Of a stretch of 64,000 bases of DNA, positions 1,978-26,710 are shown piece after piece. The stretch's first letter is position 1. Every line of letters starts with the position of its first letter. The notes beneath the pieces are model-generated. The model did no database searches and was not told the DNA's origin. It was given only the letters and a program-made list of their open reading frames with translations. The DNA is from a phage, in the sequence record PZ445524.1; one strand, 5' to 3'. Made by a program: the position numbers and the translations under genes.

Positions 1978-3302
1978 TTGATTTCCTCTAAATCTTTGGT
2001 GTATTCTGTAACTACATCAGTAGTTTTCCAATATTCGTTTTCTTCTTTTTTAGCTTTAGCTTCTTCAGCAAGTTTCTTCGCTTCATCGGAAGTCATATGA
2101 AAAATATTCATTCCAACTAGTTTATCAACATAAGAAGAATACATATCGATTTTCGAAAGTTCTTCGGTCAGTTCTTTACGAGTTTTACCCTGTACAACGA
2201 TTTCACCTGAAATTACCTTCTTAATGAAATGTGCCTTGGCAAAGGCTAAACGAAAAGCTGACTCAGTTTCTTTAATTTTGTTATCAATTCGTTTTTGGAC
2301 ATAAGTTTTACGAACTTCAACGAAGTCTTTAATTAAATCGACTACGTTATCGTAAACTTGTAGTTTTCCTTTCTCATTAATAACCGTAATATTCTGGGAA
2401 CGACGCTCAATCAACCCGAAGTCTTTCATAATTTTTGCATGGCGTTCTTCTTCGTTATCGCTCAAAGAGTATTCTTTGCGGAATTTAACTTTGAAGCCAA
2501 AGCCATGCTCACCACAAGCATCATCCCATGTAATGAAGCCTTTATCTTCAAGCGGGTCTAAGATTTTACTCACATAAGTTTCACGATCATACTTATACGG
2601 AATCTCAGTGATATGCATTTGAGTTCGTGAAGTAAACTTGTATGTTCCACGAATTTCATATTGCCCATCAATTTCAACGACTTCACCACGAAATTCTGGG
2701 AATTCTACTTTCGGTTTAGTTACTTTCTTTCCTTGAAGAGCTTGCAGTACAGCTTTCTTAACAGAAGAAACACTATGAGGAAGAATGTAAGTTGCATAAC
2801 CAGTTGCAATACCGGAAACGCCATTAAGAAGAACAGTAGGAATAACAGGCAAATAGAAAGCAGGCGGAATGTGTTCTTTATCTTGATGTACCGGAGCATA
2901 TTCAGTATCTTTATATACGTTATAGAAATTTTTACTTACACGAGCAAAAATATAACGACTTGCTGCTGCCTTTTGGACAGTACGAGAACCAAAGTTTCCT
3001 TGACCATCTAATAGAGGAAAGTTATTATTCCAAGTATTAGCCATCAAAGCGCCCGCATCTTGTGCAGAGTTTTCGCCATGATGATATCCAAGGTCCGCTA
3101 CACCACCTGCGATAGAAGCGAGTTTGTGAAACTTATCTTTATTTCCTCGTGCCAAATCAAGAGCTCGAGCAATAACAAATCGTTGAACTGGCTTAAATCC
3201 ATCAATCATATTTGGAATGGCACGATTTTCAACCGTGTACATAGCATAAGCCAATGCTTCATTATCAATGATACTTTTTAAATCGCGATTATTCAGTTGC
3301 AT
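1974..3302 (-). CDS. 52: DNA topoisomerase II medium subunit (GyrA-like)
   Basis: 442 aa, matches T4 gp52 length; GyrA/ParC-type N-terminal region (PNMIDGFKPVQRF); position beside motA and ndd. Confidence 0.95.
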   Translation of the reverse strand: MQLNNRDLKSIIDNEALAYAMYTVENRAIPNMIDGFKPVQRFVIARALDLARGNKDKFHKLASIAGGVADLGYHHGENSAQDAGALMANTWNNNFPLLDGQGNFGSRTVQKAAASRYIFARVSKNFYNVYKDTEYAPVHQDKEHIPPAFYLPVIPTVLLNGVSGIATGYATYILPHSVSSVKKAVLQALQGKKVTKPKVEFPEFRGEVVEIDGQYEIRGTYKFTSRTQMHITEIPYKYDRETYVSKILDPLEDKGFITWDDACGEHGFGFKVKFRKEYSLSDNEEERHAKIMKDFGLIERRSQNITVINEKGKLQVYDNVVDLIKDFVEVRKTYVQKRIDNKIKETESAFRLAFAKAHFIKKVISGEIVVQGKTRKELTEELSKIDMYSSYVDKLVGMNIFHMTSDEAKKLAEEAKAKKEENEYWKTTDVVTEYTKDLEEIK

Positions 3303-13284: not shown

Positions 13285-13652
13285 TTAAATTTAATGGCTT
13301 GAAGAAGACTAATAACTCTCAAGCGGCTTCTTTCATCTTTAACTGTAAAAGAAAGAGGGTCACCAGATTTCATAGTGATAGTGCATCCAAAATCAAAATT
13401 TTCGGGAACTTCTTCGAAGAAGTCAAATTCTTCAGCATAAATTAGAACATTACTCTGCATACTGTGAAGAATTTTTCCATTATTTCCAGACGCTGTACTA
13501 ATCATCGTAACATTATGACCTTTCATATCTTCAACGATAAATTCGCTTGTAGATATTACAGCATTAATAGAACCATTCCTATAAATAGCAGACATTAGAT
13601 ATTTCTTTTCTTCGCCTTCGCGAATACGATATTTCTTACCGATTTTAAACAT
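13281..13652 (-). CDS. hypothetical protein (123 aa)
   Basis: track ORF starts at GTG 13658; first ATG at 13652. Confidence 0.6.
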   Translation of the reverse strand: MFKIGKKYRIREGEEKKYLMSAIYRNGSINAVISTSEFIVEDMKGHNVTMISTASGNNGKILHSMQSNVLIYAEEFDFFEEVPENFDFGCTITMKSGDPLSFTVKDERSRLRVISLLQAIKFK

Positions 13653-17491: not shown

Positions 17492-17711
17492 CTAAAATGT
17501 AATCACTGATTGTAACAGTTTTTACTTCACCACAAAAGAATTCTAACGCAATCAAATCTCGTTCAATTTCTTCCAATTGAAGCATTAACTTGCCTGATTC
17601 AGTTTTCACATTTTTGCGATTTTTGCTATAAGCTATTTCATAAATTTCGCTTACTTTATCTTGAAGAAGATAAAACTGATCTTTAGTTATTTCCACGAAT
17701 AGCTTCCTCAA
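17451..17711 (-). CDS. hypothetical protein (86 aa)
   Basis: ORF track. Confidence 0.55.
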   Translation of the reverse strand: MRKLFVEITKDQFYLLQDKVSEIYEIAYSKNRKNVKTESGKLMLQLEEIERDLIALEFFCGEVKTVTISDYILGEISHLYKAVIND

Positions 17712-17717
17712 ATTTAA

Positions 17718-19037
17718 TCATACATAAAATACATCATAACGACCACGGGTAACACCAACATAAAGAAGTTGTTGGGCCAATTCAGCATCTGCATAATGAA
17801 TACAAGGCGTATAAATGAAAGCACGGTCTACAGACATACCCTGAGCTTTATGGAATGTTGATGCAGGAAGTGCTTTCACTTTACTGAACTGTGATTTAGC
17901 ATCCCAAAAATCACTCCACGGAGCTTTTCCGCCTTTGTTCCAATTTTTATAAGTTTCTGCCGTTTTACCTAAAAATAAATTAAACTTATATAGCTCTTCA
18001 TCAGATGAAATTATTTTAATCTTTTCACGATAATATTCATCATCGCCGTAAGTTTCTACTGTTAAATCCCAATGACGAATTAAGTATTCTCCAGAAACAC
18101 CACGAGCTTTAACAAAGGTTGATGTATACTCTGCTTCTATAATACGAACTAATTGTCCGTTATTAAAAATAATTTCTGACACAGGCTTTCCATCAATTTT
18201 ATATGTTTTAATTAATGGTTCCTGCATTACAATAATTTCACCGACAATAAAATCTTTATCAGTTTCAAAAATCTTTTTACGAATAATGCTATTTAACTTG
18301 TCAACAGATTTATTCGTAAATGCCATTACACGATTTTCAAACAAATCATCTAGTGATTTGACGATTGAAAAATAATTTACCATAAAATCGCGTAAAGCGG
18401 TATCACCAGTAAATCCACGTACTCCATGCCCGTCAACAACTTTATCATAAATCCACTTACCGTTACGAACGTCAGTAGCTACATCAATAATAGGAGCATT
18501 ACTGCGTTTAACTTCAGTGAGTTCACACTGATAAAAATCTTTATGTGTAAAGAATGGACTGATATAAGCAGTATTTTCTCCTGGGTCAACAGGTCTAATT
18601 TGCTTATTATCACCTATTCCAATTATGGTACACCAAGGTGGAATAGTTGAAAGCAGAATTTTAAATAGCTTTCTATCATACATTGACACTTCGTCGCAGA
18701 TTAATACCCTGCATTTAGCTAAATCTGGTACTTCCTTCTGCTCGAAGAGGACATTTTCTTCATATGTTACCGGGTTAATTTTAAGAATGCTATGAATAGT
18801 ACTTGCTTCTTTCCCTGATAGTTTTGAAAGAATCTTTTTAGCTGCATGAGTAGGAGCTGCTAAAATAATACCAGTTTCACCCGTAGATATTAAAGCTTCA
18901 ATGATGAACTTAGTAAGAGTAGTCTTACCAGTACCAGCAGGTCCATTAATAGTTACATGATGTTTCTTTTCTTTAATAGCCTTCATAACAATGTTAAAGG
19001 CATTTTTTTGACCTTCGGTCAAATCATCAAATGTCAT
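17718..19037 (-). CDS. dda: Dda DNA helicase (SF1B)
   Basis: 439 aa; Walker A GPAGTGKTT; T4 Dda length. Confidence 0.95.
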   Translation of the reverse strand: MTFDDLTEGQKNAFNIVMKAIKEKKHHVTINGPAGTGKTTLTKFIIEALISTGETGIILAAPTHAAKKILSKLSGKEASTIHSILKINPVTYEENVLFEQKEVPDLAKCRVLICDEVSMYDRKLFKILLSTIPPWCTIIGIGDNKQIRPVDPGENTAYISPFFTHKDFYQCELTEVKRSNAPIIDVATDVRNGKWIYDKVVDGHGVRGFTGDTALRDFMVNYFSIVKSLDDLFENRVMAFTNKSVDKLNSIIRKKIFETDKDFIVGEIIVMQEPLIKTYKIDGKPVSEIIFNNGQLVRIIEAEYTSTFVKARGVSGEYLIRHWDLTVETYGDDEYYREKIKIISSDEELYKFNLFLGKTAETYKNWNKGGKAPWSDFWDAKSQFSKVKALPASTFHKAQGMSVDRAFIYTPCIHYADAELAQQLLYVGVTRGRYDVFYV

Positions 19038-23630: not shown

Positions 23631-23867
23631 TTAACCACCTATTTCTGTTGGCGTAAACATTGCAGCATTCTTAGTTTTCCAGTCAGCTGCATCAGAAACT
23701 ACAGTAGAATATGCCGCCTTTTCAGAAGGAAAGGTCTGATAATGAGAATCTGCAATACGATGCTCGTTAGAATAGATTTCAAATGGAACAGAAACTTCCA
23801 TACCTTTAACTTCTTTACCTTCACCTGCTGGATGAGTAAAGGTCTTTATATTAACGAAACCACCCAT
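23631..23867 (-). CDS. soc: small outer capsid protein Soc
   Basis: 78 aa; HYQTFPSEKAAYSTV block recalled from Soc; late promoter TATAAATA and AAGGAG SD upstream. Confidence 0.8.
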   Translation of the reverse strand: MGGFVNIKTFTHPAGEGKEVKGMEVSVPFEIYSNEHRIADSHYQTFPSEKAAYSTVVSDAADWKTKNAAMFTPTEIGG

Positions 23868-23898: not shown

Positions 23899-23906
23899 TA
23901 TTTATA
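23899..23906 (-). promoter_or_regulatory. late promoter TATAAATA (gp55-dependent) for soc
   Basis: exact TATAAATA on minus strand about 30 nt upstream of soc ATG; overlaps stop codon of the HNH gene. Confidence 0.7.
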
Positions 23907-24753
23907 AACCATTTTCAAATCTCTTTATCATGTTTATATAATTTTCGTCAGGATAACCTAGGCTAACTGCTAGCTTTCTAAAATTGACATATTTAGGTTT
24001 GTTGTTATTAATCCATAATTCTCTAAGCTCTTTTTCATAATTCCATTTAAGTTGATTTCTGCGTGCAATTTTGCTTAAAGTTTTTCCTTTAGCTTTTAAA
24101 GCTTTTTCAGATGACTGTTTTAATTTTTGAATATTTAAAACTTCTTCTATAGATAAATTATTTTCCTTTGAATATCTTATGCAAAAATCTTTTACTATGG
24201 CTATTAGGCAATTTTTGTGAGTACCTAAAATTTCTGGATTATTTTCTTCAACTAAAATTCCCCAATACCTTCGATAGCGAGGCATATCCCTTGAAATCCA
24301 GTCATTATACCAAAAATCAAAGTTGGAATACATGAAAGATTTTCTTTTACGAAGAGTATCTTGGTTTATCCATTGCTCACGTTTATCAGCCCATAACTTA
24401 ATAGTAAAGTCTTTCTCTAAGTCAGAAAGCTTCTTAAATTGTGAGCTATTTACTGAGGTCATTCTCTGGAATGCATTCAGCAATCCAAATCTTCCAGTTG
24501 AACATAAGAGATAGTGAACATATATGTGTTGATATATTGGGAGATATACTCTATTCCAAGGATATATTTTAAAATCACTATACTCAGGAAATGCACATTT
24601 AGGAAGTATATGATGGGCTTCTGTTTTAGATTTAATGTGAGTGTTTAACTTATACTTATCTATAATTTTTAAATACTCATCTAAAAGTTCCCATTGCGGG
24701 AACTTTTCTTTAAGAGCAGATTTGAAATTAATATCCATTATCTTGACGTTCAA
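23902..24753 (-). CDS. free-standing HNH homing endonuclease (283 aa)
   Basis: HNH-like motif EAHHILPKCAFPEY similar to MobA/MobD-type motifs; basic C-terminal region; between soc and 56. Confidence 0.7.
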   Translation of the reverse strand: MNVKIMDINFKSALKEKFPQWELLDEYLKIIDKYKLNTHIKSKTEAHHILPKCAFPEYSDFKIYPWNRVYLPIYQHIYVHYLLCSTGRFGLLNAFQRMTSVNSSQFKKLSDLEKDFTIKLWADKREQWINQDTLRKRKSFMYSNFDFWYNDWISRDMPRYRRYWGILVEENNPEILGTHKNCLIAIVKDFCIRYSKENNLSIEEVLNIQKLKQSSEKALKAKGKTLSKIARRNQLKWNYEKELRELWINNNKPKYVNFRKLAVSLGYPDENYINMIKRFENGL

Positions 24754-25246
24754 AATTATGTTTGTTCTTCAAATAATAAAGTTTAAAGATTTCTTCAGCC
24801 GACATTCCAAGAGCAATAAATTTATTCATGAAAAAGTGAAATTGGTCAATCAGTTCAAATTTAATTTCAAGCTGATCTTCGGGAGATAAATCTTGAATTT
24901 TCTTGGATTGCATTTCAGAATAACGTTTCTTCCAAGGTTTCCATACAGCAGAAGCTTCTTTTTCACCATTACTCATACCACCAAGAGAAGTATATAGCTC
25001 GCGAGTTTCGTCTGCGATATAATCGTCTTGGTTTCGCAGCCAAGCAAGAACTTCTCCTGCAGTTTCAAGTGAATCGGGATGACGATTTGTTTCTGGTTTA
25101 TCATTAGCCAAACGAATCTGTAAATGCCGCTGCATATCAAGCATAACCTGCAATGGGTCTTTTTCATCACCGAGAATATCCCAGTATTCATTTTGAGCTT
25201 TATCAACACCTTCGATCAAATGAGCACATTCATTAAAGTGAGCCAT
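24728..25246 (-). CDS. 56: dCTP pyrophosphatase (dCTPase)
   Basis: 172 aa from MAHFNECAHLIEG; MazG-like; track N-terminal extension rejected because it runs through the RBS of an opposite-strand gene. Confidence 0.85.
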   Translation of the reverse strand: MAHFNECAHLIEGVDKAQNEYWDILGDEKDPLQVMLDMQRHLQIRLANDKPETNRHPDSLETAGEVLAWLRNQDDYIADETRELYTSLGGMSNGEKEASAVWKPWKKRYSEMQSKKIQDLSPEDQLEIKFELIDQFHFFMNKFIALGMSAEEIFKLYYLKNKHNFERQDNGY

Positions 25247-25317
25247 TATTTTTCCTTTCAATTCATGGGTTAGTAGATTAATTATACAATAAATATATAA
25301 AGCAATAAGGAGGACAT

Positions 25318-25518
25318 ATGGTACAAAAATTAATGGCACTTGTTGATGCCATAAAAGGTAATAAGAAACGTATAGCTTTTACTATTTCTGCTATGGTAGG
25401 AATTTTACTCTGGAACTTTATTTTATCACCTGTTGCAATTGCACATGGTATTAATATTCCAGTAGTTACTCTTGATACATTCGTAGATTTAGCATTTGCT
25501 TTAGTTGGGTTAATTTAA
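25318..25518 (+). CDS. small hydrophobic protein (66 aa), plus strand
   Basis: perfect SD AAGGAGG at 25307-25313, 4 nt before ATG; intergenic between 56 and 61; two hydrophobic segments. Confidence 0.6.
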   Translation: MVQKLMALVDAIKGNKKRIAFTISAMVGILLWNFILSPVAIAHGINIPVVTLDTFVDLAFALVGLI

Positions 25519-26543
25519 ATCTTAGCATATTTAGATAGCCGCATTTTAGCCATCAACCCCTGGGCAATATTATTTTTCATATATTCCATAATTTGTTCAG
25601 GGGTTGCACCTTCCTTTCTAATCATATCATTAACATCTTTTGATTTCCAGGGAGATTTATCCCAAAACATAACCCTTTCTCCTGCATCAACTAATTTAGT
25701 CATCCGTTTAATAGTGTCAGGGTGACGAGGTTCATTATCTAAAACCCACACTCGTCTATCTTTAAATGGAACAACTTCTAGGTCTAATTGACCACCCGTA
25801 ATAGCTATACCATTTTCAATAAAAAGTGAATCTATAGGTCCTTCTAGAACATATACATCACCATCTTTAACTCGTTCGACTCCATAGATTTTTGTTGCTT
25901 CAGGATAAGCTTTGATGGTGATATATTTTTGAGGAGCATCTTTCTTTAATGCACGTCCTTGAAAAGACTCAGCTTTTCCATTAGCATTATAAATTGGAAT
26001 AACAAGACGAGGCTCAGAAATTTCCTTTTTATATGTTCCCGGTGCTATGCTATTAACCAATTTAGGCCATTCGGTTGTAAACCAAAGATATTTCCATTTA
26101 TCCTTTGGAATACAACGAGCTTTTACATATTTTATAATTGGATGGTCTTCCGCCAGTTTATCTAATCTAACACATGACGGAAGAGATTTAATTATTTTCT
26201 TCTCAGGTTGTTTAGGAAGTTCTTTAGGTTTTTCTACTGGACGACTTTTACCTTTTTCTTTTCTTATTTCAAAGATATACTCACGATATAAATCAGGTTC
26301 AAACTCCTTTAAATATATTCCGATTGGTGCATGATAGTTACAGTTATAACAATGAATATTTCCTTCATTATTATCACCATAATACCATCCACGGGCTTTA
26401 TTTTGGTCGGTTTTTGAATCTCCACACACTGGGCATCTAAACCGTAATTTAAAAGTTGAACTATTATTTACTTGTGTGAATTTAGGTAAATGAGCTAATG
26501 CACGGTATGCAAACTCATTATCAATCCAAGGTATTGATGACAT
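25515..26543 (-). CDS. 61: DNA primase
   Basis: 342 aa; N-terminal zinc ribbon CPVCGDS...CYNC; T4 gp61 length. Confidence 0.95.
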   Translation of the reverse strand: MSSIPWIDNEFAYRALAHLPKFTQVNNSSTFKLRFRCPVCGDSKTDQNKARGWYYGDNNEGNIHCYNCNYHAPIGIYLKEFEPDLYREYIFEIRKEKGKSRPVEKPKELPKQPEKKIIKSLPSCVRLDKLAEDHPIIKYVKARCIPKDKWKYLWFTTEWPKLVNSIAPGTYKKEISEPRLVIPIYNANGKAESFQGRALKKDAPQKYITIKAYPEATKIYGVERVKDGDVYVLEGPIDSLFIENGIAITGGQLDLEVVPFKDRRVWVLDNEPRHPDTIKRMTKLVDAGERVMFWDKSPWKSKDVNDMIRKEGATPEQIMEYMKNNIAQGLMAKMRLSKYAKI

Positions 26544-26545
26544 TT

Positions 26546-26710
26546 TTACTCTTCTTTTTCTTTAGATTCCTCTTTTTTCTTTTTAGGAATCTGTTCAGGA
26601 CCTTTATTTACTACAGCGCCTGATGTTGTTCCAGTAGAGATATTTTCAGGACTACCACCTGAATCTCCAGCGACCATATCTTCTTTGATAAATTCTTTAT
26701 ATGTTTTCAT
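26546..26710 (-). CDS. small charged protein (54 aa)
   Basis: hand-translated MKTYKEFIKEDMVAGDSGGSPENIS...KKKKEESKEKEE; GAGG SD upstream. Confidence 0.5.
   Translation of the reverse strand: MKTYKEFIKEDMVAGDSGGSPENISTGTTSGAVVNKGPEQIPKKKKEESKEKEE

Follow-up and report, generated by a model that had tools for sequence, protein, structure and literature searches.

A conserved gene for a predicted small membrane protein between genes 56 and 61 of T4-like phages

Results

Gene content of the 56-61 interval

The window (the whole stretch of 64,000 nucleotides analysed here, from phage record PZ445524.1) is a Tequatrovirus (T4-like) segment, and its 56-61 region was 97–98% identical to those of PhiZZ23, JK38 and RB18. 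The interval is bounded on the left by gene 56 (dCTPase/dUTPase; 24728..25246, minus strand), which was identified from its ORF, from DNA approximately 97% identical to annotated Tequatrovirus dCTP pyrophosphatase genes, and from the annotation of T4 gene 56 at the equivalent position; its product also gave a weak match to the Pfam dUTPase_2 profile. The right flank is formed by gene 61 (DNA primase; 25515..26543, minus strand). The start codon of gene 56 occupies 25244..25246, so that the intergenic space extends over 25247..25514; this measured 268 bp, where about 270 bp had been predicted. Further along, a 283-aa ORF (23902..24753, minus strand) overlaps the 3' end of gene 56 and lies in the position held in T4 by segF, a GIY-YIG endonuclease gene. 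The RefSeq entry for PhiZZ23 names its product an HNH endonuclease, while Pfam returned no match; the segF slot appears to hold another free-standing endonuclease.

The ORF listing placed a plus-strand ORF at 25318..25518, opposite in orientation to both flanking genes. Its 66-aa product, MVQKLMALVDAIKGNKKRIAFTISAMVGILLWNFILSPVAIAHGINIPVVTLDTFVDLAFALVGLI, matched PHROG 2024 (phrog_2024) over the full length of the profile (E = 4.1e-31, residues 2–66 against profile positions 1–65 of 65). The stop codons of the ORF and of gene 61 overlap convergently at 25515..25518. A Shine-Dalgarno sequence, AAGGAGG, is found at 25307..25313 on the plus strand, 4 nt before the ATG. The ORF, its orientation and its Shine-Dalgarno sequence were as the original prediction, which was made from the DNA sequence, had described them.

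A putative late promoter ahead of the ORF

A late-promoter-like sequence upstream of the ORF had also been predicted, and one was located at 25288..25295 (plus strand), where the box AATAAATA agrees with the T4 box TATAAATA at 7 of 8 positions and makes a plausible late promoter. The T4 late box spans positions -13 to -6 relative to the transcript start, with A or T common at -13 and often A in T4-like phages (PMC1524935). Given this span, the predicted transcript would start near 25301 and carry a 17-nt leader. As is typical of T4-type late genes, a TATAAATA-type box thus stood approximately 6 nt upstream of the predicted start and ahead of the Shine-Dalgarno sequence.

This arrangement recurred elsewhere. 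Of 12 loci, 10 had the motif NATAAATA at 21–30 nt before the ATG, across several unrelated upstream sequence types; the loci of CF1 and S16 had ATTAAATA instead, while Potts1 and Entb_45 carried a perfect TATAAATA. The T4 box (GATAAATA) and the window box (AATAAATA) are both imperfect versions of TATAAATA, and both fall within segments that are non-homologous between these two phages. In addition, WATAAATA was strongly depleted: the window contained 7 matches, where shuffled sequences predicted 26 +/- 5.5, and the copy ahead of the ORF is therefore unlikely to be incidental. The depletion could reflect selection against late promoters in stray positions. Taken from these sequence features, the ORF is probably transcribed late by the gp55 polymerase.

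One of the seven WATAAATA matches is a perfect TATAAATA (23899..23906, minus strand) ahead of a soc-like gene (23631..23867, minus strand), a late gene that runs in the same direction as the early genes surrounding it. No convincing gene was found downstream of the other two plus-strand matches, at 13580 and 32218; both lie inside minus-strand genes, where they may start late antisense RNAs.

Signals on the minus strand

The minus strand of the same segment reads ATTGCTTTA - 11 nt - TATAAT (i.e., TGCTT + 13 nt + TATAAT), with the MotA box at 25298..25306 and the -10 element at 25281..25286. This matches the expected form of a MotA-dependent promoter, (a/t)(a/t)TGCTT(t/c)A approximately 12 bp upstream of a sigma-70 -10 element, and the region 25281..25306 is a candidate MotA-type middle promoter for gene 56. 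The nearest counterpart is T4 oriA / P(M)16.53, which has been described experimentally and is annotated in X01416; it has nearly the same spacing (TGCTT + 14 nt + TATAAT) and precedes the same gene 56 Shine-Dalgarno sequence and start. By analogy with this promoter, 25281..25306 probably works as the middle promoter of gene 56. The two phages differ in that the opposite-strand late box of the window lies inside the spacer of the middle promoter, whereas in T4 the late box and the middle promoter are separated by dam.

A weak terminator-like hairpin (25333..25352) was also present on the minus strand (ATGGCAtcaacaagTGCCAT plus a T-run, 25323..25352), approximately 160 nt past the gene 61 stop and inside codons 6–12 of the ORF. 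It comprises 7 pairs (3 G-C) followed by TAATTTTTGT, a form of which shuffled sequence also yields one such site (1.2 +/- 1.1). In Yersinia phage fPS-90, the same hairpin bears a terminator annotation. It was found only in Tequatrovirus loci and was absent from other genera, and the wider conservation of the ORF is therefore not explained by it; a gene 61 terminator was rejected on this ground as the cause of ORF conservation. On the plus strand, no terminator was found after the ORF within 24600..26700, and a late transcript would consequently continue antisense into gene 61.

Distribution of the ORF among T4 and its relatives

The ORF is also present in T4 (NC_000866.4, 17738..17938; 97% identity), where the order is 56 - dam - ORF - 61. 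It has no annotation in NC_000866, where 17626..17934 is left empty, and appears as a 'hypothetical protein' in OL964735. A tblastn search with the 66-aa protein showed that the ORF is encoded in 693 phage records. The window protein is 100% identical to deposited hypothetical proteins (e.g., JK38_00030 and slur02-type entries), and hundreds of relatives annotate the gene under that label. The novelty implied by the original prediction was accordingly lost: the gene is already known as a sequence, deposited many times as 'hypothetical' and without an assigned function. The T-even-like members of PHROG 2024 (JK38_00030, RB55_p033, gp16.1 of Salmonella phage S16 and the T4 ORF) share the position, strand, Shine-Dalgarno sequence and promoter box of the window gene and showed no difference from it. 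No member of PHROG 2024 has been characterised, and full-text literature searches found no paper on the ORF.

Within Tequatrovirus, 503 records contained the ORF (at least 80% identity) compared with 502 containing the primase (at least 95%), i.e., it occurs in essentially every record. In at least nine T-even-like genera (Tevenvirinae and, in addition, Marfavirus), the ORF converges on the 3' end of the primase gene, and the two stop codons in most cases overlap by 4 nt. These genera are Tequatro-, Mosig-, Gapriver-, Dhaka-, Marfa-, Mosuguk-, Kanagawa-, Moon- and Gelderlandvirus. No convergent ORF was found after the primase gene in Krisch-, Slopek- or Pseudotevenvirus, Twarogvirinae (Ac42) or Emmerichvirinae. 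In the Krischvirus KFS-EC, a 590-bp gap after the primase gene is filled by an unannotated 187-aa HNH/AP2-like ORF (L018, 2244..2807, plus strand). The gene is ancestral to the T-even-like phages and present in T4 itself.

Two local variations were observed. Gaprivervirus carries two tandem paralogues, types A and B, that are 22% identical; in vB_EcoM_VR26 (L003, 2495..2692 and 2701..2901) and likewise in TH40 (L004), the second follows the first at a distance of 8 nt and lacks its own promoter box. In T6 (NC_054907.1; L010, ~1322), ATT replaces the ATG of the ORF while the Shine-Dalgarno sequence is intact; the RefSeq annotation begins at an internal Met (61 aa) and bears an unreliable name, 'putative head morphogenesis protein'.

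The dam cassette and the 56-61 slot

The original prediction placed dam between genes 56 and 61 in T4 and found no Dam-like ORF in the window. Both statements held: the annotation of the T4 record places dam there, the best tblastn match of T4 Dam to the window had E = 0.8, and no ORF for a DPPY-type methyltransferase was present. Among the outcomes that would tell against it, that prediction had named the combination of this ORF in T4 itself with a dam gene lying elsewhere; the first half is the case and the second is not. Nor does the ORF stand in place of dam, for T4 carries both.

When the window was aligned to the 56-61 region of T4 by blastn, homology stopped at 25286 and resumed at 25307. 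The intervening 20-bp junction segment (25287..25306) corresponds to 899 bp in T4 (NC_000866.4, 16826..17724), comprising dam, which encodes an N6-adenine methyltransferase, with 99 bp upstream and 20 bp downstream; the T4 cassette and the window junction occupy the same chromosomal slot. In the phage collection, 182 records had a T4-type Dam at 90% identity or above, and 326 had a contiguous junction between gene 56 and the ORF. Together these counts account for the ORF total, which indicates that dam is an accessory cassette in approximately one third of the genus. The dam-less layout is therefore the majority state in Tequatrovirus and not unusual, and genomes of this kind appear to lack dam altogether. 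T6 is dam-less at the 56-61 site, and in the representatives of Mosigvirus, Gaprivervirus, Dhakavirus and Gelderlandvirus that were examined, gene 56 and the ORF are adjacent with no dam between them. The missing dam is an ordinary presence/absence polymorphism among T4 relatives.

The 56-61 slot is an insertion hot spot more generally. The position of T4 dam is taken by a homing endonuclease in fPS-90 and PYPS2T, while Potts1, Entb_45 and CF1 have other small genes between gene 56 and the ORF. The endonuclease gene of Yersinia phage fPS-90 (L009, 1294..1944) appears to take over the gene 56 upstream region. Klebsiella phage Lion_ER11 has a Dam homologue, with 60% identity to T4 Dam, in the rIIB-denB-ndd region (L023, 2501..3286) rather than in the 56-61 interval, which shows that dam moves between loci in T4-like genomes.

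Evidence for coding function

The length of the ORF was not significant by itself, because many spurious ORFs of 30–95 aa occur on the same strand. Comparison between genera by the Nei-Gojobori method showed that synonymous sites were saturated (pS = 0.62–0.89) while nonsynonymous differences were limited (pN = 0.12–0.34); for VR26b and Potts1, these values were 0.89 and 0.14 respectively. Closer pairs gave dN/dS of 0.13–0.35, with one pair at 0.56. Down to approximately 20% identity, the ORF kept a length of 57–70 aa and the family motif W-N-x4-P-x-A-x3-G-x2-L-P-x-[VI]-x2-[DE], and a strong GGAG-type Shine-Dalgarno sequence preceded it in 12 of 12 loci compared. When 1.84 billion representative proteins were searched exhaustively with a profile, only 16 reached E <= 1e-3, and their sizes were all similar.

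These observations were weighed against the reading that the ORF is no functional gene, such that the region is kept as DNA for the gene 61 3' UTR and terminator and for promoters, and the late promoter only makes RNA antisense to the primase gene. The minus-strand hairpin inside the ORF, the lack of a plus-strand terminator (whereby the transcript would enter gene 61 antisense) and the omission of the ORF from the curated T4 reference annotation would all suit such a reading. It does not account for synonymous saturation alongside amino acid conservation, nor for the persistence of the ORF, its length and its Shine-Dalgarno sequence at 20% identity; moreover, the hairpin is missing outside Tequatrovirus, and prophage homologues (described below) have no primase nearby. 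A non-coding explanation is consequently very improbable. Saturated synonymous sites, conserved length and motif, the Shine-Dalgarno sequence and the tandem Gaprivervirus paralogues together show that the ORF is a gene, and the substitution pattern indicates that it is truly coding and under purifying selection as a protein. The prediction that a small hydrophobic protein is genuinely encoded on the plus strand was upheld in this respect by conservation, by substitution pattern and by the conserved Shine-Dalgarno sequence and promoter box. An antisense effect on gene 61 may exist besides the coding function.

Predicted structure of the protein

Three helices, at residues 2–12, 16–42 and 52–63, were predicted by an AlphaFold2 model (pLDDT 78). 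The most hydrophobic 19-mer of the window protein spans residues 23–41 (KD 2.01), and across the family one strong segment of this kind was found (KD 1.9–2.6). The 66 residues can thus be divided into a basic N-terminus (1–18), a transmembrane helix (~19–42) and a C-terminal helix (~52–63); like holins, the protein is small and was predicted, both by hydropathy and by AlphaFold2, to contain at least one transmembrane domain. The N-terminal flank was net positive or neutral across the family, with 4–8 K+R in all but one member, and the C-terminal flank was acidic or near-neutral. The distribution of charge suggests an N-in, single-pass topology with the short C-terminal helix outside. However, the C-terminal segment of type A proteins, including the window protein, reached KD 1.86, which is hydrophobic enough for a second membrane span, and the topology is therefore unsettled. 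The conserved positions are concentrated in two places, the periplasmic end of the helix and the linker that follows it.

Searches of Pfam, NCBIfam, PADLOC, PDB sequences and BFVD folds returned family members only and no characterised homologue; any assignment of a role is for this reason a guess. Homology to the T4 antiholin RI was considered and rejected; there is a local resemblance (FILSPVAIA versus FVLSPSIEA), but hhalign gave a probability of 0.1%. RI is likewise small, with an N-terminal membrane segment and the remainder periplasmic, as predicted for the 66-aa protein; its periplasmic domain is approximately 70 aa long, compared with approximately 24 residues after the transmembrane helix here.

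A second branch in prophages

A wider profile search identified a second branch of the family, with proteins of 93–101 aa, in prophages of Enterobacterales; one member of this long branch was present on more than 900 contigs. Alignment of the long branch with the T4-like family by hhalign gave a probability of 97% (E = 4e-11) over the transmembrane and C-terminal helices. Gene order around the prophage homologue was the same in eight viral contigs and four genomes: tail-tip protein - DUF8377 - transmembrane/coiled-coil protein - T4-type lysozyme - (sometimes a SegE-type endonuclease) - 189-aa protein - 103-aa protein - family member. The transmembrane/coiled-coil protein gave weak matches to Rz, XhlA and DUF2730. 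The prophage ends with the family member, which belongs to the lysozyme block although it is three genes away from the lysozyme gene itself.

Several other features of these loci were observed. Three genes of the block (L029, L032-L035) have T4-like affinities: those for the lysozyme (T4-type), for the GIY-YIG endonuclease (SegE-type) and for the PHROG 2024 homologue. No relatives are known for the 189-aa and 103-aa genes, which are co-transcribed with the homologue, and a KAP NTPase gene often follows the block. A distant member, P0117, lies at a contig end, and a match in Anaerocolumna (L044) is an uninformative fragment beside a transposase.

The Pfam family GTA_holin_3TM (PF11351) was the top match for 30 of 30 prophage members, and for 6 of 23 proteins in a mixed set. 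Scores for the long branch were 19–20.5 bits against a cut-off of 24.8. In a reversed-sequence control, 8 of 9 sequences matched an unrelated membrane family (DUF2244) equally well, the lowest E being 1.3e-3. The similarity to PF11351, being below the cut-off and no better than this control, was not counted as evidence.

Discussion

The region 25247..25518 is best explained as a compact unit expressed in both directions. The MotA-type middle promoter on the minus strand would drive gene 56; on the plus strand, the late box AATAAATA, placed inside the spacer of that promoter, and the strong Shine-Dalgarno sequence would drive the 66-codon gene. The product would be a small inner-membrane protein with a cytoplasmic basic N-terminus, one transmembrane helix bearing the conserved W-N-x4-P, a conserved G-x2-L-P linker, and a short amphipathic or hydrophobic C-terminal helix with a conserved acidic residue, located in the periplasm; hydropathy, flanking charge and the structural model make membrane insertion in this topology probable. 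The dam gene would be a separate accessory cassette between gene 56 and the 66-aa gene, which the window phage simply does without. Taken as a whole, i.e., a two-way unit, an ancestral late membrane-protein gene and dam as a distinct cassette, this explanation is held with high confidence, although the imperfect late box, the ATT of T6, the lack of a characterised homologue and the possible second membrane span of type A proteins weigh against it.

The function of the protein can be proposed only tentatively. It may perhaps act on the cell envelope late in infection, e.g., in lysis timing or as an accessory to the holin; a role in lysis or the envelope is the best lead because a T4-type lysozyme is encoded in the same block as the prophage homologues. 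Put more specifically, the protein could be of the holin or holin-accessory type, accumulating in the inner membrane late and aiding hole formation or its timing, which is possible although rather doubtful. Its small size, predicted membrane embedding and late promoter box fit such a protein, as does the constant association of the long prophage branch with lysozyme and an Rz/XhlA/DUF2730-like protein in a single block. PF11351 as top match in prophage members, at the noise level of the control, and one UniProt entry automatically named 'Holin' point the same way. PF11351 holins are likewise small late membrane proteins, and the prophage homologues share their block with lysozyme; however, the family has three transmembrane helices where the T4-type protein has one clear helix, the scores of the long branch fell short of the cut-off and were equalled by reversed controls, and the 66-aa T4-type proteins gave no Pfam match at all. 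The charged C-terminal tail of a holin is also missing, since the terminus (...DLAFALVGLI) has a net charge of -2 and forms no basic tail. In neither the window nor any T4-like locus is the gene beside lysis genes, its neighbours being 56, dam and 61, and lysis by T4 is already served by a sufficient holin (T), together with the antiholin RI and spanins. Even in prophages, the homologue is three genes from the lysozyme gene and last in the prophage, a position that is also typical of exclusion or 'moron' genes.

Another explanation is that the protein confers envelope protection or superinfection exclusion/anti-defence through a partner, of host or phage origin and located in the inner membrane or periplasm, that is bound by its W-N...P...G..LP face. 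The conserved residues at the periplasmic helix end and linker could form such a surface; in prophages, the homologue is at the end of the element, with tail-fibre genes and cargo of the defence type (e.g., the KAP NTPase) next to it; and subtypes A and B either replace one another or co-occur, as in VR26, which could indicate adaptation to a partner. On the other hand, the known T4 exclusion genes, imm and sp, are early genes, and the 66-aa gene has a late promoter box. The dN/dS values of 0.13–0.35 in most pairs (0.56 in one) reflect ordinary constraint and not an arms race, and neither PADLOC nor any other search gave a match. Exclusion or protection is thus unlikely. The prophage neighbourhood gives modest support to a role in lysis or the envelope, and an exclusion gene could just as well be found at the prophage end. 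To return to the lysis and envelope lead in its fullest form, a late gene found throughout the T-even-like phages might take a hitherto unrecognised part in envelope handling or the control of lysis, and its product would correspond by homology to the C-terminal half of a prophage protein of approximately 96 aa that always travels with a T4-type lysozyme; in this form the proposal is doubtful.

For the most part, the finding tidies the record: the ORF is no replacement for dam, and the dam-less layout is common in the genus. The locus also illustrates how tightly signals can be packed in T4-like phages, with a late promoter box inside the spacer of an opposite-strand middle promoter, two ribosome-binding sites within 70 bp, and two genes ending on overlapping stop codons. 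The residual interest is that T4, the best-studied phage, has a conserved small gene, apparently expressed late and encoding a membrane protein, that is absent from its reference annotation and for which no study was found. The 66-aa gene could prove to be a further participant in the lysis or envelope biology of T-even phages.
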